A DNA stretch of 64,000 nt from Euglena gracilis (GCA_039621445.1 CP154954.1:5743919-5807918), one strand, 5' to 3'; counted from the stretch's first letter, positions 31,640 to 61,035 are shown. A program made the numbers and translations. The notes: generated by a model from the letters alone, not told the origin.

Positions 31640-32481
31640 GCACCACCTGTATATACTGTTAACCTCCTCCGGACCTTCAAACCCAGTAGGCTGTGCCACT
31701 GGTCGGTGGATTCGGTTCGCCCCACCACCGCAGTCGACATGGGCCCATTGACACCGTGTGCCTCGACCAAAACACTGATTCCCACCAGAGAATTTCAGGC
31801 GATCGTCCAGTGGTGTCTGGGTGCCCCGGTGGTCAGCGCTACGGACAGCCCACCTGCCTGCCCAAGATGCCACAACCCCACAGATGTCAGAGGCCACCAC
31901 CTTGTCTGCTGCCACAAAAACAAAATTGTCCGGCGGCACAATGCGGTGCAATCGCACATCCTCGGGCTCGCGCAGCGTACAGGCTTCCCAGCCAGAAGGG
32001 AAGAAAGTGCCCCAGATGGCTCACGACCAGGCGACGTATTCGTCATGAGGTACGATGCAAACGGCCCAGCAGCCATCGACGTCACCATTCGTCACCCACT
32101 TGCGCCTTCGCGAAATCGCGCCGGCTTGGAGGATATTGGCAGGTGGCATGAGGCACAAGAGCTGGACAAGATAAAGAAGTATGGAGATGGTTGCCAACGC
32201 AGAGGCTGGACATTCATACCCTTTGTGTTGGACGGTTATGGTGGCATGGGGGATGGTGCGCTCACCTTTGTTGGCAACTGCATCAAGTTGCTAGCATGCA
32301 AACACGACGCCTGGGAGAGGAGGGGCGTCGAGGGGACCTGCTGGCAAGGAATAAGCATGACTCTGGCCCGGGAGGTTCGACGACAATTGGTTTGGGGACA
32401 ATGCCCCGAAGAGCTCGCTGACCATAGCCTCCCTGAATCTCATAAACCCTACTGTACTTCATAGCCCCGAGGCTGAACCAG
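31640..32481 (+). mobile_element. second, divergent CRE-like 3' fragment (ORF ends 32464), cut by the Gypsy nest
   Basis: Motifs CPRC..GHHLVCC, RRHNAV, RPGDV..IDVTI, KIKKY, FIPFVLDGYGG. Confidence 0.85.
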
Positions 32482-33340
32482 TGTACGTCTGATTCCCAAT
32501 TCCCCTTTCCCAATTCCCAAAAGCCTTCGCTTTCGCCTTGGCGCACCTACTTGGGAACTGAAAATCAGAGTAACAGAAAATCCCTTTTCCCACTTCCCAA
32601 GAAGCAAAGCACAGAGCAATGCAGGGAGGACGGACTGGATATCCAAGTCCGGTCCGGAGAAAAGGAAAGACAAAGGGAAGAACAGAATACCACCTGTGGA
32701 GAGAGAAGGGGCACCCATTAGGAAATCCTAATAGGATCTGCTTCCATCCTAACTTCCTCAACGGAAGGGGACAGAAGCATACGACTGGTACACATCCCCC
32801 TCCCAGGGCTATGCCCCATTTCCCCTTTGGACCAGGCATTCTGGCCACAGGGATTTCGGACACAGACCTGGTCTGTGGGAGGTGCACCCTGGCGCATCCA
32901 CGGGGGCCCTTTCTATCGCACAGGGGTCCACTCAAAGGGGGGGGGGCGGAAAGGAATGGACCCAAAAAGCCCAAAACGCGCAAAATGGTTTCACCCATTC
33001 TGCGGTGGCTTATGGGTATATAGTATATTACAGCCCGCTGGGGAAAATGGGGCTGGCAGGTATCCTTGCCAAGCAAACCCATCCACCCAGTTTGGGTGTG
33101 CCCAAGGCACTTGGGGTTGGGTCCATGGGCATTCCAGGAAAACCCATGGGTTGGGTGTGGAAGGAGGGGGCCTCTGACCAGTCAAACCTGGGCAGGGCGC
33201 ATGGCCAGTCAAACCTGACCACGCAAAAGGAAATCCTACTCTACAAAGTGGCGACAGCATTTGCCCCGGGGGGAAAGTAGAGAGGAGTGGGGGGTTGGTT
33301 TAGGCCAGAAAACTGGTGCTGTGTGGCAGCCTTATGGCCT
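32482..33340 (-). repeat. 3' terminal region / putative LTR of element B
   Basis: Colinear conserved blocks shared with 35009-35975; both begin (CAG)TGTACGTC on the + strand. The inner boundary is not resolved. Confidence 0.65.
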
Positions 33341-33608
33341 CAAACGGCCGAAAAGAAAAGAAACGGAAAGGAAAAGAGGCCGTCGGCCCTGTGCGCTGCG
33401 TGTCGCACCCGCGAGAGGGGAGAGGGGAGAGGGGTGTGCATGCATGCGCACGGAATCCTGCACATGGCAGCATCCCGGTGGGAACTTACTAGCGGCGAAT
33501 ACCGCAAAGGGTCTTCGAAGGGGTTGTTCGGGCGAATACCCAAACAGGGTGTCAGGCGAATACCTGACGAGGGTTCTGAAAGCCGCCGCATTGGCGCTTA
33601 CAGACACC

Positions 33609-35008
33609 TCACCTGCCTTTATCGGCTGGACGTTCACGCACCTCACGCCAGTAGTCGTGTTGGGGGTCCCCTAATGGGTCCTCAACCAACTCCAGTTGGC
33701 GTGGGGAACGCGGCGGAGCTGATTCACTCCGAATGGTGTTGAGCTCCGGATCGTTGACATCAAAGGAAGGGGTCTCCCAGTCCTTGATCCAATTATCCGG
33801 CAGCTTCTCCCTGGTACGTTCAGCATGATGCTGAAGATACCGTTGGAGCTGCTCCCAGAAAATTGTGGGCAGCATCACCGGCCAGATGATGTAATTCATC
33901 CGGGGGTGATTCGCAGGCACCTGCGGGGGCATCCCCGGGGTCTGCTTGAAGTTGATGTCATACATCCACCTCGCTGTCCGAGCTCTTGCGGTATGGGGCC
34001 GTAATACAGCCGCCAACCAACCTCTGAAGTCCACCAAATCGTGTTCTTCAGGAAGCCACAGTGGCAAGGCGTATCCGCCATGCTGACGCTTGGAGAACAG
34101 GGGGTAAACCTGTGTCTCCCAGTCGCCATCGGTTCAGAGGTAAGGCATTCTTACCTTGGCGTGTTCCTCGACGGCGAGGCGCATTGCCCAAGCGTCGATC
34201 TGGAACTCACGGGCCATTCCCGTGTGGCGGTAGCTTTCTACCTTGCGGAAGTCGGAGTGCTTCAGGCGGCCTTCCACCTGTTTGTACTCCTTCTTCCACT
34301 TCTCCATTGTCTCCCAGTGGTGGGGGACAATGGTGGTGACTGCTCCATCAGCAGTCTGCACGAACTTGGCTCCTATACAGTTGATGCACAAGGCAGGGAT
34401 ATCCCTGTCGTGAGCATTCTCACTGTAGGAGTAGTTCAAGCTGTGCTTCCAGGCGTTCAGGCACTCGCCACATACGAGCGCCACACAGTTCGGCACATAT
34501 GCCCTGTGATGGAACCACGAGGATTGCACCTGCCGCTTGCACACATGCACAAGCGGTTGGTTGTGCCGCACATGGTGGCACACGGTGCACGTCCAGGCAA
34601 AGGACGTGCCGTGCTGGAAATCCAACACGCAGTCCTCACCAAAGTACTGTGCCAGTACTCTGGGTGAGCGCCTATTCCAGAATGTCCAGGTGCTGGGCAT
34701 CCGCAGACACGGGAGGTGAAGCAGGTTCGTCCTGCTCCTCATCCGTCGATCCGGCGGAAGACTGGGCCTGTCGACCACGAGCCTTACCTTTCGGTTTGCT
34801 CTGGCCGTACCCGGACGATGCAACGGCCGAATAGTCGTGCATTGTCGTAGGGCCTTTCGGCTGTCCGCCAGTCTGACCTCCAGCGCCACCTTTCGGTGAT
34901 GGTTTCCCATCACCGCCTTTGGCAGGGGGCTTACAGGGTGCAGCACCCGGTTTGCCTCCGTTCGGCTTCGCACTCCCGGAATCAGGAGGCGATGCCTGCG
35001 GCTTACAG
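33609..35008 (-). pseudogene. element B accessory protein, C-terminal part with Cys/His finger
   Basis: KPGAAPCKP, SSGYG, RSPRVLAQYFGE, CTVCH..HVC..NCVALVCGEC..LCINC, YRHTGMAR, NHPRMNY and LVEDPL match copy A. Stops and frameshifts are present. Confidence 0.85.
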
Positions 35009-35975
35009 TGTACGTCCAAAGCTTTCCCTTTTCCCCTTTTTGGAACTTTCTGTAAAAGCCTTTCGCTTTCGCCTTGGTGCGCAGCCTACTTATGGTAGGG
35101 AAAAGTCTTTGGAGTAACGAAAAGTGGTTTTCCCCTTTGCTTCCCAATTCCCCAAGAAGCAAAGCACAAAGCAAAGACTCAGAAGTTTCTTCTGAGATCA
35201 AGTTCGATTGTTCCGAGGGTTTTTCCCTCTGACAAAACCAATGGTCAAACTTGGAAGTGATGACAGTGAAGAATACCACCTGTGGGGGAGGAGAGAAAAG
35301 TGCTGACGTGTCCAGGGGCAGATCCCAGAAGGGTATGCCACGATCCTACCAGCTGTGGTTTTCCACAGTGGTGCGACCGTCACAGAACCCACTCTGCAGA
35401 TATCCTACAGAGCTGGGACGTGCCTGGTACACATCCCCCTCCCAGGGCTACGCCCGATTTCCTTCATGGACCAGGGTTTCCCAGTCCAGTCAGGATATCT
35501 GACGCTGCCCCAGGTGGGGTTCACTTCTCCATTCGGTGTCTCTCCTTTCCGCACAGTGGCATCCACCCAAAGCCCAAAAACGCAAAAAAGGTTAGCCGCG
35601 TTTCGCGGTTACCTATTAGCCGTTTCGGCTTAGGTGGGGTGTGAAAAAGCCCACTGTGGGAAACGGGGCTTGGCAGGTTTCCTGACAAAGTGTCCCATCC
35701 ACCCACTTTGGGTGTGCCAAAGGCACGCAGGGTTGGTCAAGCGATTCGCTGAAAACCCGAGGGGAGAGGTGTGGAAGGGGGGGGGGGCAGGCTCCTATCC
35801 TGGTCATACCCGGATAGGGCTCCTAGGCGGTCATATCCGCACTAGGAAACAAAAGCCTACTTACAAAACCGACTGCCGGCGACAGCTTTGCGGGGGTGGG
35901 GGGGAAGTAGGGAGGAGAGGGGGGCTGGCTTAGGCCAGAACAGAATTTTTGCTGTCTGGCAGCCTTAAGAGGCCT
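35009..35975 (-). repeat. 3' terminal region / putative LTR of element A
   Basis: Homologous to 32482-33340; abruptly interrupts the coding sequence of element B at 35008. Confidence 0.65.
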
Positions 35976-36339
35976 TAGGGCCAAAAAGTGACAAGTTGGC
36001 CTATTATTACGGCATGCGCGCTGTGTGCTGTGTGTCACTTAGCAGCTTGCCAGGTTTCCCGGCTGCCAAGGTCTTCACAGCAGTAGCTCCTTCACGACGC
36101 AATAAGAGGCGATTACCTCTTGCAGACGGTTTCCGTCCGGATGGGGGGGGGCTCGTGGCGGGGGGGGGGGGGGGGGGTTTTGGATGCTTCCATCCAGAGC
36201 GTAGCGTGACACAGACCCAGGTTCATCCCAGGGCTGTTCAGCGATTTCCGCTACCAATGTATATATATGTATAGTATATGGATGTCCAGGCTCCATGAAG
36301 GCACTTACCTTACATGAGCCTGGTAATGCCGTTTTGGCA

Positions 36340-37360
36340 TTACATCCGTTCCAGCCGCCAATAATCATGGCGGGAGTCCAAGGGATCTTCCACAAGGACC
36401 ATCTGGAATTGAGGTGGTGGTGGCCTATCTACGAGCCAGGTTTCTGGCGATTCGTATTCGAAATCAGGTGCCACCCAGTCCCGAACCCATCCTTCGGGGA
36501 CTGTGTGCTTGGTTGCACTCGCTCTTTCTGCGAGGAACCATTGCAGCTTCTCCCAGAATTTCCTGGGCAGAGTTGCTGGCCCGATGAAGTAGTTCATCCT
36601 TGGGTGATTGGCTGACACCTGCGGGGCATTCCCTGGGTGGAAGTCAATCGGCATGTGATACGCACATTCTGCGCGGACTGTATGGGGTCGTAATACGGCC
36701 CCAAGCCAGTCTTTCCAGGTCATCCCGTGGTTTTCGGGTGGCCATTGTGGCAGGCACCAGCGACCGTTTCGGTCCTGGTTTTGGAACAGGCGGAAAAGTA
36801 TCTTTTCCCTGTCTGCTGTCTCCCAGAGGTAAGGTAATCTTACCCCTGCCTCCTCAGCAGCGAGGCGTATCGCCCCACTGTCGATCTGCCACCCACGGGC
36901 CATTCCCGTGTGGCGGTAGTCGTCGAGCTTGAGGTTGGCATACTTGAAAAAGTCCTTGAACTTTTTGTTCAAGGTGGAGTATTCCTCCAGTGGCTTCTCG
37001 GCACTTGGCACGATTGTGCGTACTGCGCCTTCCGCAGTGTGCCAGAAGGTACCTCGAAGGCAGTTGACGCAGAGAACTGGTACATTCGTACCGTCTCGGT
37101 CTGTGTAGCTGAAATTGTGCTTGTGGGTCCAACTGTCCACGCACTTGGCGCATACCAAGGCGGCACAGTTAGGGATGTATACATCCTTGTGGAACGATTT
37201 CCGATCCACAGGGTTGCACACATGGACGAGGGGTAATCCCAGGTCAAGTGCACTGTTGTACATCTTGTGGCATACAGTGCAAAGCCACACAAAACGGTTT
37301 TCCGTTGTTTTGTCGATGAGGAATTCCTCACCGAAGAATTGGGCCAAAACACGGGGAGAT
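36340..37360 (-). CDS. accessory protein, exon 2 (Cys/His cross-brace-like finger and Trp-rich domain)
   Basis: Open ~340-codon frame with no initiator ATG, preceded by TTCCAG. Intact in both A copies and conserved in B. Confidence 0.8.
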
Positions 37361-37478
37361 CTGGAATTCTAATAATTACAGGTCACATTCTGACCATTTC
37401 CGTCCCTGACAGAACAGTGGCTCAATCCACCGGTTAAGGCATTGCTGTGTCCTCAATTTATGTGCGATCATCATGTAC
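37361..37478 (-). other. putative 118-bp GT-AG intron inside the retrotransposon
   Basis: AACAG|GTACAT ... TTCCAG|ATCT, both phase 2. The spliced product LKNRSPRVLAQ aligns with B, which lacks the segment. Confidence 0.7.
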
Positions 37479-40400
37479 CTGTTTTTCAGGTCATGAATGT
37501 CAGGGTCATCCTGATTGATCGCGTTCCAGTCGATGACAACTTCGTCTTCTGAAGGTGTCTCGGCTGTCGAGGCGCGGGATTTTCCCAGCCCCTTTGACGG
37601 AGGTTTCGGCTGTGAGGTTTTCCCATAGCCGGATGACGTGACGTGCGTGAATCCTTGTCCCGAGGTTAATCCCCGAGAAGAGGATGCAGCACTCTGGCCG
37701 CCAGCACCACCACCGCCTTTCGGTGGGGGCTGATCACCAGATTTCGGTGTGGGTTTGCAAGGTGCGGCGCCCGGCTTACTTTTCGCCGGGGCCTTCGGGC
37801 TTCCGGCTTCCGGAGTCTCCGAGGGCCGCCGCTCGGCGTCTCGCTTGCTTGCCCACGTGCGTGGTGACGCTTGGGACGGGGGTCTTTTCCCCGACGCCGA
37901 ACGTCGTTGACCTTCAGCAGGGGTTTCCCGAGCTGATGGTCGTCCTACACGCTCCTTCGCGGCTCCCGAAGGTTTCCCAGGGGTAGCCGTGGGGGATGGT
38001 GTTGGTGTAGGCCTAGCCTGTGCACTTCGCGCTGGCTGAGCCTGTGGTGCAGGCATGGACGCCCGCTCGGCCTGTTTTTCAGGCGCCGGTGTCCGTGTGC
38101 CTTGACGCTTCTCTGGCGTGACTGTGGCTGTACCATGAGATACGGGTTCATCCCGTGCCTCCGGTGGTACCGCCGGTGTCGATACAGGTTCATCCTGTAC
38201 TGACACGGCTGGTGTTGTCTCCACAGTCATTGCCATCTGTTCGCCTTCCGTCCGTGTCGCTTCCGACACTGGCGGTGGCGCTGCCGTTGGGGAAGGTTCA
38301 TCCTCCACCATGGCTGCAATGTCAGATGTGTCTTCCGTCAGCTGGGCAGTTTCCGCCGCAGCTGTGGAAGAACTGGCCGCAGTGCCACGTGGAGTGACTA
38401 CTGCGATCAGTGACCGTAAACCACCGAGTACGCGTCCGCCCAGTGAGGTGCGTCTCTCCTCACCTGAAGTGGGCTCCTCGGCTGGCTCCTCGGTTAACGG
38501 GGTTTCCCCGGAAACAGGGAGCTTGAGGCGTAATACCTCGGGCGTGTGGGGTACCGTTTCCGGCGGGTTTTCCCGCGGAGGGGTTGGTACACCCGCTGTA
38601 CCCAGTGAGGCTGGTGATAGAGGGACAGGTGTCATTTCACCTGCTTGTGATCCTGGGTGTTGGGCGGTTTCTGCCACAGTATCCAGCATCACTACCGATG
38701 GGCTACGGGTTTCCCGTGCCGGAGGTTCCGTTGGCTGAGGTTCATCCTCAGCCATTGGGACCTCCTCCTCCTCCTCATCCGCTTCCGGAGAGGATTCGGC
38801 TGCGTGTAGCTGTGCTGCAGAACGCGGGTCTTTCCTGCTCCTGTAGCACCCTTGTGCGTTTGACAGGCGGAAAAAGCTAATACTTTCACTCCTGTCAGAG
38901 TTGGGGTATGGGGGCGGCCACGTCGCTCTCACCCAGCTTTCGGGTGGAGGCTGTGGTTGATCATCGTCGATCAAGCAAAGGTCTTCCCACTGCCGTCGAC
39001 AATGGTCAGTCACGCCAAACTCTCCTGTTTCTTCCAGGAATGCTGGCAGTGGCAACGCGTAACGAGGGACTTCCCCTTCGTGCGCCGCGAAAAACATCTG
39101 AAAATCCTCCCATATCAGGATATTCCCGAATTGGGTATCCAGGTGTTCCTGGAGACCGATTTCGGCCTCTTCCCAGTCTGGTCGCAGGTTCATCCTGCGC
39201 TGGTCTGGGTCATTGGGTCTGGCGTTCACCTCCATATATCCCCGAGGCAACCACTTTCTGTGGATTTCCACATCGGCGGTCATATATTCCAGGAAATATA
39301 TGTAGACCTCCAGGACGTAGGTAATCCACGCCCTGTGCCAGTACTGCTGCAGCAGAAATATTTTCTGCCGGTGCTGTTTCAGCACCTTTCGGTCTTGCGT
39401 TCCAATCTGGGGATTCCGGCACTGATGCAGGAGGCTGGCTGCCGGCATTCTTGGCAGACGGAGGCGGTTTTCCGCGTTCTCCGAAACCCCAGAAGTCAAC
39501 GATGTGGACTTCCTTGCAAAACTGGCATTCCAGTTTGTACCGCTGGGGGTATGCGAGGTCCACGTCCAGTACCTTGAACAGCATGCCATACATGCTGTCC
39601 AGGAAGACTTGGAGGTTGTTCGTGAACATTACCGCAGCCTGTGCCTGGAGTTTCTCCGGCAGGGGGTAATACTTCCACTGGATTCCCAGTGCGCTGACTG
39701 AAAACATGTGGTTGAAGATTTCCTTCAACTGTGCGACGAACGTTTCGCCGTCTTCACAGGTATTCAGGCAATCGATATACGTCAGACCGTTTCGGTCGGT
39801 AAAAATGCCGAAATTCTGGCAGGGGTATCCCAACCAGAACCACAGTTCCCAGAAACCAGGCATCTGGTCCAGGCCAACTTCATGCGAATGAGGGTATCCC
39901 TCGAACGCATGAAGTTCGGCACTGTAGAAAAAACGTTTGCAGTGATCGTTCATACGATTCTGCACCACTTCGAGCACCGCATCCGGTGGTCGGTGGATCA
40001 CGTTGCCTGCCCTTGTGAACTTTTGGAGATCCTCGTCGATTTTCGGCCAGATCTCCTCCAGGTACTTGAACACTGAGGCAACGTCATAATCCTTCGTTTT
40101 CGAAGGTTCGGCGGCTTTCCCGCCCTTGCTTGCTGCGGGTCCGGCAGATTTTCCGCCTTTGCCTGGAGCTGGCCAGGCGGCTTTTCCGCCTTTGCCAGGT
40201 GGGGCTTTCCCACCTTTCTCTTGGCCTTTTCCTTTCTCCTTACCTTTGCCCTTTCCTTTACCCTTGCCCTTTGTGTTTGACAGCCATTCGAATGTCGCCC
40301 GGTATGGGTCAAAGTATTCCCAGTATTCTGGGTCTTCTGGCGTAAACACTGGGTAAGTCACGGATTCCGTGCTTGGCGTTCGAGCAAATTCCTGCTCAGC

Positions 40401-41762
40401 ATCACCACGATTCGAGTAAACCGGTGCGACTGGGGATGGTCGGGTTTCCCGACGTGCCCGTTCTGCCGTCACGTCGGGCGCTGGTGGAGCTTCCTCCTCA
40501 GCGTCGACGTGCATCGCCGCGGGCGGATTTTCCGACCTCGGCGAGCGGCGCTGTGGCTGCGGCGTCAGATTTTCCGGGCCGCGGTCACGCTTGCCGGCGG
40601 CAGAACTTGTGGGCCGTGCTAGAGGCGCTTCCGCCACAGCAACGTCCTGCTGTCGCGCTGGTTGCCTTGATCGTGATGGAGCTGGGACTCCTGTGAGAGC
40701 CGACACAGCAGCATCATACTGCTGGCGCTCTTCCCGTGTCATTTCCGCCCGGGCAGGGTATCCCTGGCCAGCGGAAACAGGGGGGCGACGTGCGATTTGT
40801 CGTTGGATCGTCACAGCATATTCGTACTGTTGACGCTCCTCCTCAGTCTCAAACGGCCGGCCAGTCCACGGGTTAACGGGTTCATCCCGTACCGGGGGAA
40901 CTGGTGCCGCACGAGGCGCTGCCGCGGCTTCCCGCGGACGAGCGCTTCGGGCAGAGTCAGACGTCGGGGGAGGATTTCCCTCCGCAGGACGTCGTGGGAT
41001 AGGGTCAGGTATGGTTGGGTGGGGTTGAGGTGGATATACGTACTGATCCCGTGGCCTTGGCGCCTCCTGGGGATAATCCCCAGAGACGGTGTACTGAGAC
41101 ACAGGCTCCTGTGCAGGATAATCCCGCCGGGGCATGCGCTCAGGGGATCGAAAAATACTTTCTTTCACACGTGGGTGTTCACTCCGGACAGGTGCTTCCA
41201 CTGTCTCTTCCTCGGGTAATCCGGGGGAGTGAGCACGAAAATGTGCCGTGTAAGTGCCAACTGGCGGTATCTGCCGTGCTACCTGTGGCGGGACTTCCAC
41301 GCCCAGGTCACGCATGGTAATGTCCGCCGCGAATCCTGACGTGTCCGGGCCGGTGTAATACACCAGACCGGTCATCGTCGCCTGGGCGCACATACACCAC
41401 AGGGCTGGAGGGGTATTCGCGATGGTCAAAACTTTACGGCAGTGGTCATCCCACAATGCCTGTGTCAGTTGGTCTGGTGCCGGGTTTGCGCTCATAGGCA
41501 TAACCCGGTTCATCGTCTCCGCCGTGCGGTGGATCATCACACCCGCATACGGTGGGAGGCGACGAGAGCCTGATGGCTGAGATGGCCGCGCTTCCGCGGG
41601 CATCTGGGTCATCCTGCTACTGCTGCTGGCTTCAGGGTTTCCCTGAGCCGCAGTCCGTGTAGGTGGCTGCGTACCGTATCGGTACGCATACTGGTCAGGT
41701 TGAGGGTGCGTGGTGGGGTGGTAAGGCGGTCCTCCGCCTGGCTCCCTTCCACCGGGCAGCAT
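37479..41762 (-). CDS. accessory protein, exon 1 (Pro/Arg-rich linkers, KG repeat, two conserved globular blocks); one 14-bp deletion frameshift at ~39433
   Basis: ORFs 39210..41762 and 37376..39589 fuse when the 14 nt present in copy 2 (~58537-58550) are restored. Confidence 0.8.
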
Positions 41763-41847
41763 GATACAGCCCGGGGTCGGTACGGTGGGATGTTTGGGTT
41801 GTTGGTTGTAGTAAGGGTAACCGCTTGAGTATTATTTGCTAAAAAGT

Positions 41848-41900
41848 CTGCGGAAAGAAAGAATGATAAGAATCAATGATAAAAAGAAAAGAAAACAACA
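41848..41900 (-). promoter_or_regulatory. polypyrimidine tract + CGCAG splice acceptor ahead of the accessory ORF
   Basis: TTCTTTCTTTCCGCAG|ACTTTT. Equivalents: TTTCTCTATCTTTCTCGCAG|AGTTTT in B (53271) and the same site in copy 2 (60965). Confidence 0.7.
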
Positions 41901-41918
41901 TGGGTTTCCCATGAGTTC

Positions 41919-44900
41919 TCAAAAACTTGTCATGGAAACATCAATGTTATGTTTCTTGTTCCACAGCTTCCAATCTTGCTGGACATACCCAACAAAACTG
42001 GTTGCTGGCTCCCAAGTGTCCTCCTCGGGCCCATACCCTCTCCAGCGGACCTTCCAAAGGTGCATACCTTTGTCGATTTTGTGATCGATAATTTTATCGA
42101 CTACAAAGTCGTCCGTCTCAGGTAATCTGGAACGGGGTTTGAAGTGCAAACACGGGATGGGTTTCCCATCCGGTGGCGACAGGTATGGTTTGAAGTCGTC
42201 TATATGAACGTCCTCGACACCATTCGGTAATGCAACCTTGTAACGCCCGCTGGTACCTAGTCTTTCTAGGATTTCACAGGGGCCGAGCCAGAGGGGGTCC
42301 AGCTTGGAAGACTGCATGCGAGTGCGGCTATTCCGCACCCACACGCGGTCACCGGGACTATACACAGGTGACTTGAAATTCTGCAAAAACGATTTCCGTT
42401 TGGTTGCATGAATATCAGTCACGCACTTCTGGACTGCAGAACGTAGATTTTCTACTTCCGCAAACCAGGTCTCGCAACTGACACTCGTTCGGGCGGGTCT
42501 CTCCGAAGGGACATCCCCTATGGCCGGAGGGTCCCGTCCGAAAACTAATTTTTAAGGGGAGTGAGGTAAAACCAACCCTGGTAGGGTATTGATATAAAAC
42601 AAAGACCATGGTAGAACTGATATCCAGTTGCTGCGCGAGTCAGCCAGTGAAAGGCGAAGCATATTCACAACGGATTTCACGGCTGCCTCGGCTCTACCAT
42701 TGCCTTTGGGTCGGTATATAATGGAAAAATGTTGCTCGATTCCGAGTAAACCGCACAAAGTGGTGAAAAACCTTGAAGAAATCAAATGGTCTTGATCACT
42801 CACGATTTCATTCGGTAAACCCATTAAGCAAATGCATTTCTCCAAAAATATAGTTGCCAAACTTTGGGCAGTCAACCCTGACTTCTGCCATGGAATGGCT
42901 ACAATGTACCCACTCAGCCTGCAGACGACAACAAAAACGTAATCGTAAATTCTGTCGTCCGTTCCTTTGCACGGTTCTAATTCCAGAAAATCCATGCAGA
43001 GGGATGTAAAAATGTCAGGGGGTACGGGGAAAAAGTCCATCGTACCAGGGGGGGTACCTCTGCGGGGTTTTACCGCTTGACAAATTTGACACCGTTGCGC
43101 TATTCGCAAACAGCGTGAGTAAAGCTCTTTCTCGCTCAGGGTTGTGCAATATCTGCGGCCGTTGTGCAATATCTCCCACCAACGAAAGAAGTTTGGGGGC
43201 CCCAGGGTGACCATGGTTGTGATAACACAAAATCACATCATCAACCAGGTCCTGGGGAATACCATATTTGTAACCCGATTCATTGCGAAAAATGACCGGA
43301 CGTGCTTCCACGTCGGCGCCTTCCGCGCACTGGTGCGATCAGGAATAGTTGTGAAACGGGAAAAGAATCCAAAAGATTATCCGCAGCGTCGTTTCGACGT
43401 GCGTATTCGTCAGCTTCCTGACTTCCATGAAAAGTCGCGTCTCCCTCATCCGGGTTCCCAGGGTAATACCAAGGGGCCCGACTGAGCGGATCCGCTACTT
43501 TTTGTGTGTGACCAGGGGTATAAATAACCACAAGTTTGAATTGACTCAAGAACTCATGCCATCTGCATCGCCTTCCGACCGATGACATGGCCTTGTTCAA
43601 ATCCTCGGTGTACCAGTGTTGGAGACTCTCATGGTCGGTCTTGACGAGGATCTGGACGAGGCTGCTGGCTACCCAGCTTCGGAATTTCTGGAGTATAAGC
43701 ACGATTGCGTAGGTTTCCTTCTCGCGTATACTCCATTTGACTTGACCTTTTCCAGCGTCGCCCTGTAACTTTCTGCTGAAGAAAGCCACAGGTCGGAGCT
43801 CATTCGCCGCATTATGCTGGCTAAGAACTCCGCCAACAGCGTAATCGCTGCTGTCGACTTCCAACACGTATGGTTTGTACGGGTCCGCGATTTCGAGGAC
43901 AACATTCTCCAAAAGCAAAACCTTGATTTTCTCAAGGGCCTCACGCATTTGGTCATCCCAAATGACTTTGATGTTGTCAACAGCCCGGTTTTTGAGCTGT
44001 TTGGTGAGGGGCACCGCGATTTTCGCGAAGTCCTTCATATAAATCGCGTAGTATTGGGCTAATCCCAAAAATCCTTTGAGGTGAGTAATCGTTTTGATTA
44101 CCTCAGGGGTCCATTTCTTAATGGCTTCAAGTTTACTCGGAGCGGCTTTCCGCTGTCCATTGCTAAGGATGTGACCGCAAAATTTTATAAGTAGCCGAAA
44201 CAAATGCAGTTTCGCGCCTTTCGCGAAAAGCACATGTTTTTGAAAAGCGGTTAATACCGCGCAAACATGGTGGAAGTGTGTGACGAGGATATCCTCGCTC
44301 GATTTTGCGGATGGTGGTGGTGTTCCCACCAGCACATCATCAATGTACACAATGGCAAACGGTAAATCGCGTAGAACCCATTGTATCATGCGCTGAAACA
44401 TGGCTGGGCCATTCTTAACACCCATGGGGAGTACCGTCCATTGGTACACACCCTTGGATGTCACGAATGCCGTGTATGGTTGGGAGACAGGGTGTAAGTG
44501 CATTTGGTGAAAACCGTCCTCCAGATCGAAAATTGACCACAACCGGTTTTCCGATTGTTTGGTGATCAAATCCTCGATCAGGGGGAGCGGGAAGGGATCA
44601 TCCCTTGTTTGGGAGTTCAGGTACCGGTAATCCAGCACCAGCCTCCATTTCTTCTGACCTGAGGGGTCTGGGGGTTTAGGAACAACGAATGCCTGGGATG
44701 TCCACTCGCTTTTCGAGGGTACAATCCACTTGCGCTGAATAAGCTTCTCAATCATTTCATTGAGAGCTTGTTCGCGTTCTCCCGAACAACGAAAAAATTT
44801 CCGGTGCATTGGCTTGGCTCCATCCTTAAGCTCGATCTTACAAACACCGAACGGACCGCGTATCGCGGGGTCGATGTCGCACGCGTATACTGGATTTTCC

Positions 44901-46887
44901 AGCACACCGTGAAATTCGCGGGTAATCCGCGAACAGAATTCGGCTGACTTAGGATGCTGACCTGCACTCTCGATGACTGCGGAAACCGCCAGGGTATCCC
45001 TGGGGCTACCGAGCTTCCTCGGCACCGCGAATTCGGACATTCCGAATGCATCGAAGAAACATACGCGAAAAATGATTTCTTGCAAGGGTGGTAATATTTT
45101 GCCACAAAAATCCTCAAAAATAGGCACATTAGTGGGTAAATCCCACCAATGAAAACATACATACGATAGTTGGGTGAACCATTCCGCTTCCGGAATGATG
45201 GGTATGAGAATAACTCCACGGGCTTCATCCCGCAGAATTTTCTCAACCGCACATTCGATAAGTTTTGGGGGATGGTGCATCCATAACACCGTGTCACCCC
45301 AAAATTTATCAAATGCGTTGGAGTGTTGTGACCAATGACGTGGCAAACGGGCATGTGCATTGGATGAAAACACATCGATTTCCAATGCCAAATCAAAAGA
45401 ATCAGCCAATGTCGCGATTTTGGAAAACCATCGTTCCAAAATGCGATATTGACCAAAATTGAAAGCATTCCATACGCGTTTCGCGTATTCGTGCACCCGA
45501 TTTCCGGGTTGGAGAGAAGAAACACAATGAATGGATCCACAAACATGCGGGTTGTCTTCCACTACCTCAAGGGGTAATCCCAAGGGAGTTTGGACAGGTT
45601 GGGGATTTCCCCATTCCGCATCAAATTTATACCAAGTGTACTTGGGATGGTGGTTAGGCATGACGCTTTTCGCGTTTCCGAACAACGAGGTTATTCCGCG
45701 TTGTTGGAGTACTCGGTGTATCTCCGCGCATTGCGGGTTACAACCAAGTGTATCCTGGGGTGTGGATTCCGTATTCGGAATTGCGATTAGTGTCGGATTT
45801 TCAACTAAACATCCACAATCGAAATCCGATTGGGTGGAAATTCTCCTGCAGTGCACACATTGGAAGGAAGTGTGTTGGTGTGACAGGTGTGCGTGTAAGT
45901 GGGTGTCGATGGCATTAGCCGGTGAGTCTTGTACAGGTGTGCCTGGATTCGGCACAACTGGTAGGAAACGGAGTGGTGGTGTAGCTGGGCGACTACTCGA
46001 CACCGATATATCTTCAGGCCTTTGGGCTTTCGTCTTGTAACCCAGTGAAACGGCGGGGGTACCGCTACTCGCTTGCCCTGCCTCATGTGGAACGCATGTT
46101 GGTGTGTCATTGGGCAGGGGGGAGGCTTTCTCCGTACCCCGGGTGTGGAAAACGGTTGTTGGTGTGGTGGATAACGGTGTTGCCATTGTAGGTAACGGTG
46201 TTGGAAAAGTGGTGGTCATCATGGCTGATGCCAACGGTGATGGTGGTTTGGGTGTCAATGAAGTGGTGGGTGCTGTGCGCAGACCGTGGGAGTGGCAATC
46301 CACAACCAATCGGTACTGGCGTAAAAATAGGTATCCCAAAATTACATCAGACCCGTGAATTCCGGACTCGTAACCCAAATATTGGTGAAATGTTGTAATT
46401 GTGGGGGTTGTGAGTGATGCTTCGGAATGATGGGCAAGAGTATCTCGAGCACACATCCCAAATCACCACCACACATGGGGGTGTTATCCGCGGTTGTAAT
46501 TTTGATCAGTTTCTTGGCGCTTACCAAGAGCGTGGTCGGTATCAACCCCAACCGAAAGAGCAGTGCAATGCGACAACCAGTGTCAATGAGAATTTTAACT
46601 TTAGTGGAGAAATTTTGGACGCGGATTTCCGCTTGGACGAGCAATTCCATTGGTGGTACGCAAAGTGAAGGGTCTGGCGGAAATACGTTTACACGCCAGC
46701 TCTCCCATGAACCCTTTCCTACTTTGCTCAGCATTCCGAGCGGAAATGTGGAGTGGGGGGTACGGGACCCGAAATAATTCCGGGTACTGACCGTGAAGGC
46801 GGATGGGCAGGGGGGGTAAGGTTGATCAGGTCTTACCTCCATCTGTTCATCAGCCCAGAGGTCCGTGCCCTCGGACCTCGGGCTCCC
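41919..46887 (-). pseudogene. pol: pol of copy A1: protease, MTase-like domain, RT, RNaseH, integrase, chromodomain
   Basis: Motifs ILIDTG, LDYRYLN, FDLEDGFHQ, YIDDVL, VDSSD, TDHESL, H..GHPG..CQIC, MDF..SDQ..GRAE, GPCEI, WKVRWRGYGPEEDTWEP. Lesions: frameshift ~46420, ~150-bp deletion ~43292, short duplication ~43160, stop at 42552. Confidence 0.92.
45050..45400 (-). other. DNA N6-adenine methyltransferase-like (Dam/DIRS-type) domain within pol
   Basis: EIDVFSSNAHARLPRHWS...NAFDKFWGDTVLWMHHPPKLIECAVEKILRDEARGVILIP...EWF follows the DIRS MT pattern (DxF..N..LPxxxS..DAF..W....xPP..LI....K........LI.P.....WF). Confidence 0.72.
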
Positions 46888-46890
46888 CTA
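46852..46890 (-). promoter_or_regulatory. putative stop-codon readthrough signal (UAG-GGG + hairpin)
   Basis: TAG GGG AGCCC-GAGGTCCG-AGGGCA-CGGACCTC-T-GGGCT; gag and protease are in the same frame. Confidence 0.7.
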
Positions 46891-49220
46891 CTCCAAGTCC
46901 GAACCGGCCGCATAGCCGGCAACGGACTTTTTGGTGGAATAGCTGGAATTCAATGAGCGCACCGCCATTCGGGCCTCATTAAATTCCCCGTCCGAGGTCT
47001 CATCCCCCTCCCTGCCCGAAGCCGGGGTGTCCTCCTCCAAACAAGATATCTTGAAACCGACCTTTTGCCGGTTGGAGGAGTAACCACGGTCATCGCGGCG
47101 CTTACCGCGATTTCCGTAGCCGGGCCGGGGGGAACGAGATCCGGGACATTTGGATGCGTGGTGATCTTTGGAACCGCAAAGTGAACAACGGGATTTGTGG
47201 CGGGATTCTGCATAACGGGGGGAACGGTATTCCGTTCGACCGTCAAACCGTCGTTGTGTACGGGTTTCCCGTCGACCATGACCGGTGTACCGGGGTTTCC
47301 CCGGTGACTCCCGCGAAGAGGATGATCCACTTCGCGAACGAGATCGTGAATAGTCGCGATTGAAATCCCGTTTTCGGGTAGGGGGTCCAGGTGACCGACC
47401 GCGAGAAGGACGGGTTTCCCGACCATCACGCGATGGTGACTTGGGCCTGCTACCGCTAAAGCGTTTCTCCGAAGAACGTGAAACTCCTGATTGACGTGAG
47501 GAGGTCGAGCCCCTTGGGCTTCCAATACGCTTTCGCGCATCGGGATTCGGACATTCCCGAGACATGTGACCAGATTTGTTGCACAAAAAGCACCGTTTAT
47601 CCGTGCCCTGGTCCGAAGAACGCTGATTCCGCGTTTTCGGTCCCGTGGTGGGTGATCTTGGTGACTTGGGTGATTTGTACAACGCATTAACCGCACCCGC
47701 AGGGATTCCCGCGGTGGGATGCGTTTGGAAAGCGGACTGTATTTGTCCCAAAACTTGTGTGAGTTTGAGTTGCTTTGACACATAATTCCAACGTTGGGCA
47801 AGAGTCATCTCATGCCCTGCCAACTCCTCGCGATGGATATCCTTCACGAGGGATGGTGTGAAATGCAACAAAACCACATCTAATTGTTCGCGCATTTGCT
47901 TCTCGCTAAGTTCATCAACTTCGGCAGCAAGTGCTAACCATTTGGCATACCAAAGGTCAATGGATTTCCATTTGCGATCCGATGGCGCGGATTGTCGCCA
48001 CTTCTTCTCCACGGTAATCCTGGTGACCAAGCTTGAGTTGGTTGAAGCGTATTGCTCAACCAGGTCATCGAATGATACGCCATTACGTATCACCAAATTA
48101 CGTGCGCGTTCTCGCTCTTCCCTCGGTAGGCAATCGATGAATTCCATCTTGACTACCTCGGGATTCGGGTCTTGGGTGGGTCCCTTTAGTGCCCAGTGAT
48201 ACTCCCAGTCCCGAAAAAATTGTCTTCATGTGGTTGGATCCCCGTCCCATTGGGGTTTCACCTTGTTCGCGATTGCGATGGTGCCCTTGAAGTCTCTCTG
48301 AGTAACCCGCTGACCCTCGGTGGTATTCCAGGGGTTTGGGTCAGGGTGATTCTTTACACCAAACGCGTTTCGCGGATTTTCCGCTCCATGTGTACCCCGT
48401 GCAGGATTTCACGCACCAAGTGTAGGTGTGGCAGGATTTTCCTGCGGGAAGTGCAAAAAATGTGGTGAATTTCTCCCGGTGGGGCGGGTTTCCCGCCGAA
48501 AACCCGATGGGTGATCTGGTAATCCAGAACCCGTTGGTGATTGGTATGATCACGAATGCGACACATGACCAATACCAGGTGTGGGGTGTTGGCTCATTCC
48601 TCGTACAAGGTTGGAATGTTGAATTTCTTGGTGGAGACTCGAATTTGCGAGCGGGGCGTCAATTTCCTCATCGGAAATGTTGAGCGAAAGGTGGGTTTGT
48701 GGTGTGGGCAAAAGCAAAGGTGGTACAATTCGCGTTTTAGCGGGTGGTTGTACCAAATTCGCGGTGGATGTAGGGATTCCTACTCCAGAAATGGTAATTT
48801 GAGAACGCGATTCTGGGACATTTGGAATACCAACCGCAGCGCTTACCGCGGTGGATGGTGGCACAACCGGTGCCGGAGTGGACATTTTATCCAAACTCGC
48901 GGACAAGTCATGCACCGTTTCTTCCAAATGTTCCACCAACTGGAGTTGGCCGCAAATACGGTCAACCTCAGTCTCCAAATGTCTAATGCGTTTGCGGTAA
49001 CGGGAAAAATAGTCCAAGTGTGGTAACTTTTCAGAAACCAAGTGTAGGTCTTGGACAAGTTGTCTCTGGGACTCCTCCACATTCCGGAGTTGACCCGCAA
49101 GCGCTTTTACTGCATTTGAGACAATTTGCAATTGGTGGGGTGACTTGGTGGGGGTTTCCGCGGTGGTGCGCGAATTTTCCGCGGTTGGCTTTTCCAACAG
49201 CGCAGAATAAGGAGCCGATG
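46888..49220 (-). pseudogene. gag: gag (coiled-coil N-terminus disrupted; open 46888-48147)
   Basis: Two CCHC knuckles (CFLCNKSGHMSREC, CSLCGSKDHHASKC) separated by an RS-rich tract; heptad-like segment at ~48890-49135. Confidence 0.8.
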
Positions 49221-52200
49221 GTGCCGGAGTAGACGCTTGCCGTCTGGGCGAAGCGGGCATACTGACCGCTGGGTCACGCATGACGCTCGCAGGGGTCGGC
49301 AATCGTTCCGGGGGTTGTTCAGACGGCCGTCGCCGAGCAGGTTCATCCTGTCCGACGAGGCGTGGCACTGTGGTCGTCACCGGAAGCGGTGCTTCCACAG
49401 GTGCTGGCACTCCCAGAAACTCTGCCATTGTCTTCGGGATGGCAGGGACCCTGCGCGGTGTCAGTGGTCGTGGGGGTATCTCCTCCACTTCCATTTCGAC
49501 ATCCGGTCAATGAGGTTGATCCTCCACAACCGCTGGCGCAGGTGCTACGGGAGGTTGATCCTCCGATGTAGCCGGTGCGACAGATGGCCCTGTCGGCTGG
49601 GGTTCATCCCCTGATGGTGGTTGCTCTGCTGTCGGAGATGGGGGTGAGGGAACGCCGACATCCGGCGTCTCCACGACCTCAGCGGCGGAGCTTGATGCTA
49701 CGCCTCCACCTCGTGGCGTTAGTGCAGCAGCCACGGCAGTAATGCCGGTGACTACGGCGCCGAGCACACGGCCTCCTAACTAGGTGCGTGCTGTGGGACT
49801 GGCAGGTTCTTCGAGGATATCCTCGACGACCATACCAGTCACCTCGGCTGGAGGCTCAGCCGTTGGAACAGGCGTAGCAGCCACAGGTATATCCCCTGCG
49901 GGTGCTCCGTCTGGTCTAGGCTGTGCCGGAGCAGGCAGAGCAGGGTAGAGGATATCCTCCACGTTCTCACCTTCCTCCTCAGGAAGTTCCTAGTCTCCAC
50001 CTACCGGTGGACAGACGCAAGCCGCCGCGGGAGCCGGGGAAACCGATCGTTCCCCTGCCGCTCGCGGGGCAGAGACGAAGGATACAGCCGTTCCTGTCGG
50101 AGACGGCGGCGCTGCCTCTAGAATGGTGACGGAGGGGCTGCGGTCGCGTTCCTCCCGCCGCGGAATCGCGGTGGTGGAAGCGACTGACGCCTCACGTCTC
50201 CTTGGCGCCAGAGGTTCATCCTCCGGGGCGATGAAGGCGCGCAGATCCTCGGGCGAACGAGGATCGTCGGGGTTCCATCGGCATCCCTGGGCATCCGCCA
50301 GCCTGTAAAAGGCCAGCGTACTGCTGCTGGCGCTGTTGGGCCAGGGTGGCGGCCATGATGGCTGCACCCAGGCGTTGGCAGGCCTGTTCGGGCCCATGAA
50401 GCCGCGGTAACGCGTGTCTTCTCAGACCTCGAAAAAGCCCTCCTCGAACTCCTGAACGCATGCCAGAATCGGCATACGCTGTTCGAGGATGGCCTGCGGG
50501 TGACACATCAGCGGAAGGAATACCTCCCGGTCGAGGGTACCGCCAAACTGTCGCCGCAAATGTTCCTCCATGCTGATATCAGCCATGTGCCAGTTGGGGC
50601 GCAGGTGGCCGAGAATCCGACGACGAGGACCCTCGATGGCGTCACCGTAATCCGGTGGCAGGCTTTCCATACCAGGCCTATCGTCCTGGGGGTCACGGAG
50701 ATGTATATACACCTCCATGACATAGGTGGTCCAGGCTCGCCACCAGAACTGCTGCAGCATAAAAATACGCTGCTTGTGGACGCGGCGACTTTTGCCCTGG
50801 ACATCCGGGGCGTCGCGGCACACATGCATAGGCATGCGGCGTCCCATCTCCAGGCCCGGGTTATCCCGAGGCGGTGGAGGACTTCCGCGCACGCCGAATC
50901 CCCAGAAGTCGACAGGAAATTCCTGCCGGCAGTACTTACAGCAGAGGTCATACCTCTGCGGGTAAGCCAGGGAAACGCGCTTAACGCGGAAGGTGGAGCC
51001 GTAATGGCTCACCAGCCACACCTGGAGGTTGTTGCACCACAACACCTCGATCAGGCGTTCGATGTCGGGGTGTAGTGAGTAGAATTCCCACTACACGCCG
51101 AGGGGTCCGACTGTATGAATACAGTCGAAGATTGCCTTCAGCCTTCGGGCCAACACACGCTGGTCCCGAAATCTCAACTGGTGCAGGTAACTGCGACCAG
51201 TGGAGTCGCCGAAGAGACCCCAGTTCTGGCAGGGGTATCCCAGCCAAAACCAGAGCTCCCAGAAACCTGGCTGGGTTTCCAGCAAGGGTCTGCCACCTTC
51301 ACCTTCGAAGGCGTACAGATCTATCCCGTAATGGAATGGTCTGACTCTGTTCTCGGTGTGGCGTAATACCACATCGATGACTGCTTGTGGAGGGGTGACG
51401 GGGCGGTTTCCTGCAACATGGTAATCATGCTGCATTCGCCAGCCTTCGTCCTCCAGCTCCTCCTTGAACCTGAGCATATGCTCAAAGTCCGAGAGGACTT
51501 CTGCTGGTTCCTCTTCCTCCTCACGTGCTGTTCCCTTACCTTTACCCTCACCCTTCCCTTTGCCGGCCACGCCTTTGCCTTCTCCCTTGCGTTTGCCCTC
51601 GGCCTTGCCTGTGTCCTTTCCCGTCTGGCGAATACCAGAGGGTCGGGCGCTCGGTGCCGCCGGAGTCGGTTCGGTTCCTTCCCATTCCATCTCTGGGGAG
51701 GGACCTGGCCGACCCGCTGCACGTCGCGGTGACGGCGTGGCTGGGCGTCGGCTAGGAGTCTGGCGTGGGCTTGGCTTCGACGCAGGTGGTCGCGGCTCCT
51801 TCCATACCGGAGGGATCGGCGGTGGCATGGTGGCAACAGGACGGCTCATCGCCACCTGTGCCTCTGCCGGTGGTCGTCCAGCCGGGGTGTCCTGGCTGGC
51901 TTCCACCTGCATCGCCACACCGCCTTCCGCGTCCCGTGGGCTGGGTCGCCTGGGCTGTGGGGTAAGGTTCTCCGTAGTCCTGTCGTGCTTCAGGGTGGCA
52001 GGTAATACTGCTCCACCTGCCGGGGGCTCACCGTGTAATACCGGGGTTGCCACCCGCAGCTGCGGCTGGTACGGATGGTATGGGGTGTATCCACGGCCCT
52101 GAAGGGCAGCCAGAGAGGAATAATACCTCGTCCGGTGCTCTTCAGACGCGAATACTGGCTCCTGCAGGAAGTGTCGAGCAAGCTCATCCTGCTCGGTTCC

Positions 52201-53171
52201 CGAAGGTGCCATGTGGTAGTAGGGAGTCTCCTGCCGACGGGGGATATCCCCAGTCTGGACAGGAGCTGCACTGGGCGGTCGGGCTGCCACACGGTGGGGA
52301 GGTTCATCCTCCACCACTATGGGCTCCGGCTGCAGCCGTGGCTCAACGCCAGGGACAGGGGCGACCGGTGATGCCTGTGGCATCCTGTGCATGAACATGT
52401 GTTGGACGTATGCCACAGGGGGCACGTCCGACTGTCCGGCTGGGAGCACGCGTGCGCCGCGCGGGTAATCCGCGTGCGTCGCGTACTGCGAGACAAAGTG
52501 CTCCGCTGGCGGCTCGCGCGGCGGCATTCGCTGCGGCGAGGGCGGGCGAGCAAAAATTTTCGTCATCCCAGGTGGGACATGCACAGCCTCACATACCGGT
52601 GGGGGCGTGTGCTCACGCATATGCACGGTGTGGGATCCCACCGGCGTCTGCGTTTGCAGCATGGGCGGCACATACACGCCCAGGTCCATCATTGTCTCGC
52701 CAGGCTCGAATCCGGAATCGGATGCCGACGAGAAATACCGTCTCCCCGTCATCAGGGCTTGACCACAGGGACACCACTGAGCCACCGGCGTGTTGGCTAC
52801 CACCAACAACTGAGCACAGTATGCATCCCAAAGGGCTTGCATAAAGGGCTCTGTTGGGGGGTGTGCGCACATACGCATCGCCCGCTCCAACGTCTCCGTA
52901 GTGCGGAAGATCATCTCTCCCGCATACGGGGGCAGGCGCGATCTGCGCTGCGCTGGTGGCTGAGGTGCCGGCTGCTGGACGGCAGATGGATCTGGTACCG
53001 CATATGCGGACCGGCTGCTGGTAGCTGCGGCGAATACCGGGTCTGAAACCCTCTCAGCATGTGGGCACCCGGAATCGGGGCCTCAGCATACTGAGGGTAC
53101 TGGGGGTATGGCGCGCCAGGAGGCTGCGGCCATGGTGGACCTGGTCCAGGTCCGCGCCCAGGCAGCAGGAT
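49221..53171 (-). pseudogene. element B accessory protein, N-terminal and central part
   Basis: QALWD..C..L..ANTP...WC.C.QA.MTG..Y, ENLTPQP.R, KG repeat, PGFWELWFWLGYPCQN, LAYPQRY.L.C..C, VDFWGFG and LRP.W are shared with A. Several stops. Confidence 0.85.
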
Positions 53172-53363
53172 GCTACCCGAACGACGACGACAACTAAGAG
53201 TAACCTTGTTGTCAGTCGCTTTGAGTGCTGGTGCACTGAAAAAGGTAGGCTTCTATCTTAATCAAAAACTCTGCGAGAAAGATAGAGAAATAAGGAAGTG
53301 CAGGGGGGGTATAAACGCGAAACATTCACATAAAACACACGCATTTTCCAAAACGAAATCGTT

Positions 53364-55253: not shown

Positions 55254-55266
55254 NNNNNNNNNNNNN
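55254..55266. other. assembly gap
   Basis: 13 N next to a poly-G run. Confidence 1.
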
Positions 55267-55444
55267 GGGGGGGGGGGGGGGCGCTTGGATGCTTCCATCC
55301 AGAGCGTAGAGTGACACAGACCCAGGTTCATCCCAGGGCTGTTCAGCGATTTCCGCTACCAATGTATATATATGTATAGTATATGGATGTCCAGGCTCCA
55401 TGAAGGCACTTACCTTACATGAGCCTGGTAATGCCGTTTCGGCA

Positions 55445-60879: not shown

Positions 60880-61035
60880 GATACAGCCCGGGGTCGGTAC
60901 GGTGGGATGTTTGGGTTGTTGGTTGTAGTAAGGGTAACGGCTTGAGTATTATTTGCTAAAAAGTCTGCGGAAAGAAAGAATGATAAGAATCAATGATAAA
61001 AAGAAAAGAAAACACCATGGGTTCCCCATGAGTTC

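Follow-up and report, generated by a model that had tools for sequence, protein, structure and literature searches.

Long terminal repeat (LTR) retrotransposons with Dam domains, chromodomain-bearing ones included, form the published background of the element studied here, a minus-strand retroelement (copy A, 35007-49207) with gag, pol and a large third open reading frame (ORF3). It lies in a stretch of 64,000 nucleotides (nt) of Euglena gracilis DNA (GCA_039621445.1 CP154954.1:5743919-5807918), called the window in the following. The respective preprint (10.64898/2026.05.21.726589, bioRxiv, May 2026) describes a Euglena gracilis DAM-LTR/DIRS group and uses 'EpiLTRs' for elements with an added DNA methyltransferase (DNMT). 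It gives Asn-Pro-Pro as nearly universal in the Dam domains of DAM-LTRs, reports that 6mA (N6-methyladenine) was not raised in an E. coli heterologous expression assay of a Dam domain, and cautions that some of the E. gracilis DAM-LTRs may reflect nested insertions or artefacts of assembly. Like these DAM-LTRs, copy A is a Ty3-like LTR element whose Pol has a Dam-like domain of the DIRS type and, in addition, a chromodomain, and a truncated Dam fold with a beta-sheet core is common to both. They differ in the catalytic motif, i.e., Asn-Pro-Pro plus an aromatic residue in the published elements vs. HHPPK in copy A. EpiLTRs, as described there, combine Dam, DNMT and chromodomain, whereas copy A is without a DNMT domain and thus not an EpiLTR; no DNMT family is found among the Pfam matches of the copy A ORFs or of the ORF3 of the related copy C.

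Plant and rotifer LTR elements with an extra ORF between pol and the 3' LTR have been described as well (PMC7264820, PMC11963269 and PMC5408684). A first-pass annotation of this DNA had noted that chromoviruses normally encode only gag-pol; an ORF after pol is a known phenomenon in LTR retrotransposons (PMC7264820). In that paper, aORF-3S elements (aORF, additional ORF) show, like copy A, an extra sense ORF between pol and the 3' LTR, which most copies of the respective family retain, and expression by splicing is known for some aORF elements, e.g., Bagy2. The sense aORFs described there are env-like with membrane segments, whereas ORF3 has none, is far longer and falls into no described family. 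Retand elements (PMC11963269) share with copy A a long region between pol and 3' LTR (2.9-6.6 kb vs. ~6.9 kb here) coding for a protein of unknown function, but they are plant non-chromoviruses with antisense ORFs (TRP28 domain), in contrast to the sense ORF in a chromovirus found here.

DIRS1-like elements are the type from which the Dam-like 'MT' domain originates, and Atlas clusters that combine RVT_1 with Dam come from Evosea and Arthropoda. DIRS elements use a tyrosine recombinase, whereas copy A encodes a chromodomain and an integrase of the DDE type (rve); no tyrosine-recombinase family is among its Pfam matches, where rve is found instead. In the PDB, the nearest relatives of pol are those of yeast Ty3 (Gag-Pol 7q5b, E 8e-61; reverse transcriptase 4ol8), i.e., the nearest solved reverse transcriptase-RNase H-integrase (RT-RH-IN), with a domain order as in copy A. 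Ty3 is without Dam domain, chromodomain and third gene, all three of which occur in copy A's family. The Pol order protease (PR)-RT-RNase H-IN together with a DDE integrase places copy A among Ty3/Gypsy elements (Metaviridae).

We consider it likely that copy A is a 5'-truncated DAM-LTR chromovirus of the Ty3/Gypsy type, nested in the ORF3 of an older element from a sister subfamily, and that its own ORF3 is an accessory gene preceding the 3' LTR. The Dam part is already in print and ORF3 is apparently the part not yet described: an ORF after pol is unmentioned in the main text of the preprint, the supplements of which may show element maps. As regards the methyltransferase, the possibly undescribed lineage of the first-pass annotation is thus a described one. 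On the element strand, the layout would read ORF0/gag, a TAG stop that is read through, PR, a Cys motif, the Dam-like domain, RT, RNase H, integrase, SH3 and chromodomain. The features of copy A are, from its 5' to its 3' side:

48550-49207, minus strand: ORF0, coiled-coil-like, upstream of gag and cut at its 5' side (open frame; weak coiled-coil Pfam matches, E 0.003)
46888-48225, minus strand: gag with CCHC zinc knuckle, ending in TAG (PF00098, E 2e-6)
46342-46887, minus strand: N-terminal part of the protease with DTG motif, in the gag frame, which is broken at ~46373 (translation)
43280-46462, minus strand: pol ORF with C-terminal part of the protease, Cys motif, Dam-like domain, RT and RNase H (RVT_1, E 1.5e-24; RT_RNaseH_2, E 7e-24)
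45026-45508, minus strand: core of the Dam-like methyltransferase fold, residues 80-240 of P0003, motif HHPP (PF05869, model and fold matches)
42552-43232, minus strand: integrase core (rve, E 2.8e-10)
41919-42551, minus strand: integrase C-terminal SH3 and chromodomain, up to the pol stop TGA at 41919-41921 (Chromo, E 2.8e-11; SH3_Tf2-1, E 1.5e-7)
41848-41900, minus strand: splice-acceptor-like polypyrimidine tract ending in CGCAG (AG at 41849-41848; sequence)
37376-41762, minus strand: main part of ORF3 from the ATG at 41762, interrupted in A at ~39435, where 14 nt are lost (ORFs; the homolog P0016 starts at the same Met)
36340-37368, minus strand: Cys/His-rich C-terminal part of ORF3, 342 codons in the +1 frame (same frame change in A, B and D)
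35007-36339, minus strand: 3' untranslated region holding the 3' LTR, ending in ...GACGTACACT(G) (ends of A and D alike)

By self-comparison of the window (blastn) and translated comparison (tblastx), four related pieces A-D were told apart. In addition, contigs of four public runs (X1, X15, X17, X18; the latter three RNA-labelled) were placed on positions 34000-50500. A window ORF survey puts every long ORF from 32.5 kb to 64 kb on the minus strand. The pieces are:

32479-35006, minus strand: fragment D, C-terminal part of ORF3, 3' region and LTR end, the remainder of a divergent element (collinear with A 37840-35016)
35007-49207, minus strand: copy A, 5'-truncated Dam-chromovirus insertion of 14.2 kb (loose ends and empty-site contigs at both borders)
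49208-55253, minus strand: copy C, RH-IN-chromodomain and the first ~1,300 codon-equivalents of ORF3, from a divergent subfamily and interrupted by A
55254-55266, no strand: assembly gap between C and B (run of 13 N)
55267-64000, minus strand: copy B, same subfamily as A by nt identity, running off the window

Between copy B and A, nt identity amounts to 98.6% (7,153 nt) and, in a further stretch of 1,450 nt, to 99.1%; B's RT-RH-IN is open for 983 codons and its chromodomain is broken by an 8-nt insertion. Copy C shows 83% nt identity to A in the integrase-chromodomain DNA, and A's downstream ORF is matched by C at the protein level only, collinear to ~49285 (tblastx). Within ORF3, C is collinear with A from 41762 to ~37931. 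The end of copy C and the start of fragment D are neighbouring points on the map of A (~37931 and ~37840), which suggests that the two are parts of a single older element from the sister subfamily and that A interrupts it. That is, copy A appears to sit inside the ORF3 of an older, divergent relative, into which it would have inserted recently. Some contigs join 35006 straight to ~49210/49228, which is the empty-site form of the C/D family; by our own reading of the contigs, ~8 nt of this form are missing at the insertion of copy A. The junction between C and B is uninformative on element ends because of the assembly gap, and indels are present in every copy within the window.

In copies A, B and C alike, pol is followed by ORF3, and one of these copies stems from the subfamily that is ~17% diverged. 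In A and D, the end of ORF3 is followed by ~1.3 kb and then by an identical LTR end: both terminate in GACGTACACTG, a motif found 2x in the window vs. 0.32 expected, which for fragment D is located at 32479-32489. Judged from this shared order, ORF3 is part of the element and lies upstream of the 3' LTR end. The first-pass annotation had likewise placed the accessory ORF within the element, and had it kept in two divergent subfamilies, as is found here at the same position in A/B and C/D. The architecture could alternatively be a chimera of nested insertions or of repeat assembly and not one transcription unit, considering that elements are nested throughout the window, which also contains an N gap, that the preprint itself cautions against such cases in this species, and that many odd joints occur among the X1 contigs. 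We regard such a chimera as very unlikely given the recurrence of the same pol-ORF3 junction in three window copies, the diverged one included, and a 942-nt contig of X15 that spans 41764-42699.

Regarding its ends, the first-pass annotation had taken 35009-49220 as one element; a minus-strand retroelement is indeed present (35007-49207), but it is not a complete one. No direct repeat joins its ends when 34000-37000 is compared with 46000-51500 (blastn, word size 7; best match 29 nt, E 0.17). In the contigs of the four runs, loose ends are located exactly at 35006/35007 and 49207/49210. Contigs matching up to 49207 continue beyond it with sequence that does not occur in the window (12 records of X1 and 1 record of X17), where the loose-end consensus, as we read it, keeps the ORF0 frame in other copies. 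Because contigs of other copies run upstream of 49207, copy A is cut on its 5' side and is without 5' LTR or primer-binding site (PBS). It is a 5'-truncated, mutated and defective copy, not an intact element.

For its 3' side, contigs of X15 and X17 show the same 3' end (35007) and then, on the element strand, the PBS-like TGGTAGCAGATTTAGGC..., which is absent from the whole window. We read TGGTAGCAGATTTAGGC as a putative primer-binding site, as it terminates in the complement of a tRNA-like ...CCA 3' end. Since this PBS-like site follows the common end, the 1.3 kb after ORF3 should contain an LTR, namely the 5' LTR in these other copies, and the family thus has LTRs. A second TGGTAGCGGAAATCGC string, which resembles the PBS-like site of other copies, is observed at 36255-36240 (minus strand), after an AT-rich patch and ~85 nt downstream of the ORF3 stop. 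No target-site duplication is visible at the C/A/D junctions. An intact 3' end together with a missing 5' part is what would be expected if a DNA break had captured a minus-strand reverse transcript before its completion, and copy A may have arisen in this way. The capture of Ty1 cDNA in yeast is an analogue of such an insertion. If so, the truncated nested copy records an insertion route that does not involve integrase.

Next, we consider the domain between protease and RT, which had been annotated as methyltransferase-like at first. The respective 336 residues (P0003) have a single weak Pfam match, Dam (PF05869, E 0.0063). Of 1,662 candidates in a word-indexed search, 12 proved to be relatives; each of these is polyprotein-like and stems from a metagenome assembly, with a precomputed RT domain in 10 and a precomputed chromodomain in 7 of them. 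When the 12 aligned family members were scanned singly, 10 matched PF05869 (best E 7e-6). An AlphaFold (AF2) model based on the family alignment is confident in its core only, given that residues 80-240 alone score high (predicted local distance difference test, pLDDT, of ~79-96 vs. a mean of 63). The top Foldseek match of the domain model is PCIF1 (6irw, probability 1.00, E 2.3e-4), a cap-specific adenosine N6-methyltransferase. In the VIA-align comparison with representatives, PCIF1 reaches Z 10.4 (root-mean-square deviation 2.8, 128 aligned), followed by T4 Dam (Z 8.6), M.TaqI (Z 8.3) and EcoDam (Z 8.2), and the best 50 rows are methyltransferase-fold proteins. The assignment of the domain as methyltransferase-like thus holds. 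A metagenome scan with the Dam alignment returned no related locus.

Fold and catalysis have to be distinguished here. Across the 12 members the catalytic motif takes the form W-[IML]-[NH]-P-[PSHM], with Asn in 6/12, His in 6/12 and a strict NPP in 4; only 2/12 (P0010, P0012) have an aromatic residue behind the triplet. The window copy reads HHPPK, and since His takes the place of the catalytic Asn, catalysis appears doubtful for copy A. Half of the lineage has His where a catalytic Asn was supposed to be invariant, a point relevant to whether Dam domains of this kind have methylation activity in the first place. A working chromatin/DNA-modification toolkit, as the first-pass annotation had proposed it, is therefore doubtful for this copy, and nothing connects ORF3 with such a function, as it is without Pfam, PDB or confident fold match.

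Dam domain and ORF3 do occur together. P0027, a pol protein with the Dam motif, shares 98% identity with that of copy C, and P0016 shares 94% with the start of copy C's ORF3. As these two proteins match copy C, both subfamilies have Dam domain, chromodomain and ORF3. Each of the two is on one JGI contig of 5,563 bp, and they are probably on one and the same contig because the sizes agree. Beyond that, no ORF3 relative was found on contigs of 12-19 kb like those of the distant Dam-chromoviruses (9/11 ORF3 relatives checked). The co-occurrence is therefore established in two close subfamilies only; an ORF3 in the more distant Dam-chromoviruses is still conceivable because it diverges fast.

ORF3 comprises ~1,466 + 342 codons (~1,800) on the sense strand between pol and the 3' end, and its ATG lies 154 nt after the pol stop codon. 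Its similarity survives in the sense frame alone where the DNA of A no longer aligns with that of C/D (tblastx). For instance, the sense frame scores 130 bits at 41265-41561 (29-91 in other frames) and 119 bits at 39417-39752 (35-50 in other frames). The ratio of nonsynonymous to synonymous substitution rates (dN/dS) is 0.21 over 361 codons vs. C and 0.32 over 227 codons vs. D, values that overstate the constraint since dS is saturated (1.6-2.1) and the underlying high-scoring segment pairs (HSPs) had been selected for similar protein sequence. Amino-acid identity of A with the C/D HSPs is 42-67% in ORF3 vs. 88% in the integrase-chromodomain part.

The encoded protein is Pro/Ala/Glu-rich with Lys/Gly-rich tracts and long low-complexity stretches, among which three conserved blocks are found: N-terminal (N1), middle (M, CxxC...DFWG...HxC) and C-terminal (Cys/His-rich). 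Relatives of the N-terminal block are P0016, P0019 and P0020, and the M block is invariant over five sequences at C189, C192, D199-F-W-G202, R206, H227 and C229. An 873-residue piece of ORF3 retrieved 8 proteins among 1.84 billion representatives (HMMER), with no stand-alone cellular homolog among them. The M-block profile matched 3 proteins among 2,613 candidates, of which P0028 is new and P0017 and P0022 were already rows of the query alignment; distant M-domain relatives (P0021-P0023) are on short contigs. For the C-terminal part, 0/728 candidates of near length passed E 0.001, longer proteins being outside this search; one metagenome scan with the N-domain alignment and one viral-contig scan for related loci gave no relative. 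No Pfam or PDB sequence match or confident fold was obtained for the ORF3 parts (best PDB E 0.18 and 0.38). The AF2 model of the M domain has a mean pLDDT of 46.7 and yields long-helix matches only in a VIA-wide search (Z <=4.9), an uninformative result and no evidence of a new fold. The best matches of the C-terminal part are all weak (Pfam Zn_ribbon_10, E 0.039; PDB RNF141, E 1.7), and its RING-like Atlas feature scores of 0.82-0.85 are below the trust level of the tool and serve as leads only.

The position of ORF3 and the splice-acceptor-like site ahead of it would also suit an env-like gene that provides an extracellular, virus-like phase, and weak PDB sequence matches to astrovirus spike/capsid exist (E 0.4). 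An envelope role is unlikely in the first place because no hydrophobic stretch exceeds 1.16: the maximum 19-residue Kyte-Doolittle mean has this value, so that no signal peptide or membrane-spanning segment is apparent on this crude hydropathy scale (applied without a dedicated predictor), in line with what had been annotated at first. No envelope family is among the Pfam matches either. With no membrane segment found, we rejected the env reading, which we deem extremely improbable.

ORF3 might also be a passenger, i.e., a host or foreign gene transduced once by the ancestor of the two subfamilies and now decaying without a role in the element cycle. Its orphan status, the long low-complexity tracts, the frame breaks in all window copies, a divergence far faster than that of pol (see the identities above) and the short contigs of P0021-P0023 fit this view. 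Against it, ORF3 keeps its position, the order of its conserved blocks and the upstream acceptor-like motif over two subfamilies, it retains similarity in the sense frame only, with dN/dS below 1, and no stand-alone cellular counterpart was found among the 1.84 billion representatives. We thus judge it unlikely, if clearly less so than the chimera and envelope readings.

Returning to ORF3 as a gene of the element, its main part is preceded by a pyrimidine tract of ~50 nt between pol and ORF3. The tract is identical in copy B, and the divergent copy C has a shorter pyrimidine-rich tract with the same CGCAG end (~53270-53290). Expression of ORF3 may proceed via a subgenomic RNA that is spliced, or trans-spliced to a spliced leader, at this conserved polypyrimidine-AG site 86 nt before the ATG. 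In copy A, ORF3 is spread over three frames (39210-41831, 37376-39628 and 36340-37368). The first break stems from 14 nt that A alone has lost; with the 14 nt of copy B, 1,489 codons are open (41831-37378). The second break is common to A, B and D, i.e., to all three copies that cover it, and puts the last 342 codons into the +1 frame. A GT-AG interval at 37478-37361 (118 nt) would join the ORF3 frames in A, such that the C-terminal part could be attached by a short intron, with this interval as candidate, or by a +1 frame change. Programmed +1 frameshifting at the ORF3 stop was set aside, as A and B would meet a TAG two codons later, and an intron or a separately read C-terminal part was preferred.

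The product would be a non-membrane protein, disordered for the most part and able to bind zinc, with a role in the cycle of the element and not in cell entry. Going further, ORF3 may be a working accessory gene, expressed via spliced or trans-spliced RNA, with N1, M and Cys/His-rich domains without known relatives, and needed for replication or for escape from silencing. We offer this reading tentatively and rate it possible rather than probable.

Several points weigh against the view of copy A and its ORF3 presented here. An intact ORF3 is present in no copy of the window (2 frame changes in A, 3 in B, several in C and D), which qualifies the initially annotated large sense ORF in env position: the ORF is there with ~1,800 codons, but in three frames in A. 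An in-phase GT-AG pair easily arises by chance in ~250 nt, and the equivalent in D is out of phase. No RNA joint at 41848 or 37478/37361 is seen in the contigs of X15, X17 and X18, where cover is thin; as these are contigs that may contain DNA and have low cover at 37306-39509, the absence of joints says nothing either way. The LTR start, a target-site duplication and the full 5' end are not seen in the window or the contigs examined. Finally, the shared contig of P0016 and P0027 is deduced from equal size, and no ORF3 relative was found on contigs of the lengths of the distant Dam-chromoviruses, with the scope given above.

We now turn to the remaining parts of gag and pol. ORF0 is in the gag frame, from which it is separated by stops within 48226-48549; it could be either an N-terminal extension of Gag that is broken in copy A or a separate gene. 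The gag stop TAG (46888-46890) is followed by GGG, and PR continues in the same frame. In copy A, PR is split over two frames by a 1-nt loss at ~46373. Contigs of 3/4 runs (26 contigs of X1 as well as X15 and X18) have an extra C behind 46373 that rejoins the PR frames. As the frames are joined in these other copies, the family reads gag-TAG-pol in one frame, which agrees with the readthrough pol annotated at first; the same applies to PR (DTG motif) and to RT, RNase H, integrase and chromodomain (Pfam matches), which are found in the claimed order. The integrase N-terminal zinc region is lost in A by a 146-nt deletion at ~43296 relative to copy B, where it is intact (P0002). Near the integrase N-terminus, A also has 16 extra nt compared to B, and the 8-nt insertion that breaks B's chromodomain is absent from A. 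The chromodomain (PF00385) covers residues 149-184 of the 41919-42551 ORF, at the C-terminus of the integrase.

Two further observations concern these genes. At gag position 47494, an in-frame 27-nt insertion in the Arg/Ser-rich part is found in contigs of X15, X17 and X18 and in no X1 contig, which points to a family variant. Between protease and Dam-like domain, a Cys motif of the QC-x2-C-x11-C-x-C type ('FQCVHCRRISTQSDFDCGC' in A, 45750-45830, minus strand) is conserved in the family (relatives P0004-P0014) and resembles an extra zinc knuckle.

Concerning the wider meaning, Dam-carrying chromoviruses represent a newly recognised route by which retrotransposons may engage host epigenetics, and at least two of their subfamilies have a very large, fast-evolving extra gene behind a conserved splice-acceptor-like site. 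If ORF3 is expressed, it would parallel, in a protist, the accessory genes of retroviruses and would provide protein folds not known so far. If it is a working accessory gene as tentatively proposed, a Gypsy lineage would combine retrovirus-like gene regulation with the absence of an envelope. None of these findings overturns current views of LTR elements.

Outside the A-D array, the window contains an 878-codon open frame at 681-3317 (minus strand) with an RVT_1 match (E 1.4e-13). It has no blastn match to A-D and is therefore another retroelement. Positions 1-28200 form a dense patchwork of direct and inverted repeats (72-96% identity), e.g., 1-869 with 5239-6530 and, inverted, 15753-16998 with 22055-20858. 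Rfam and tRNA scans of the window found nothing, and the whole window resembles nested repeats with no obvious host gene. Two long poly-C runs are located in 3' regions (36145-36176, minus strand, and 55254-55266). Contigs of X17 and X18 break there, and the copy B contig ends at the same poly-C place beside the 13-N gap, such that the homopolymer probably broke the assembly. In X15, X16 and X17, which carry labels of other organisms (one is a leaf-litter metatranscriptome), a fraction of 0.28-0.40 of the sampled words is present. The X15 and X17 contigs placed on the window are mostly >=95% alike, and the family or its host thus occurs beyond the 'organism A' samples.

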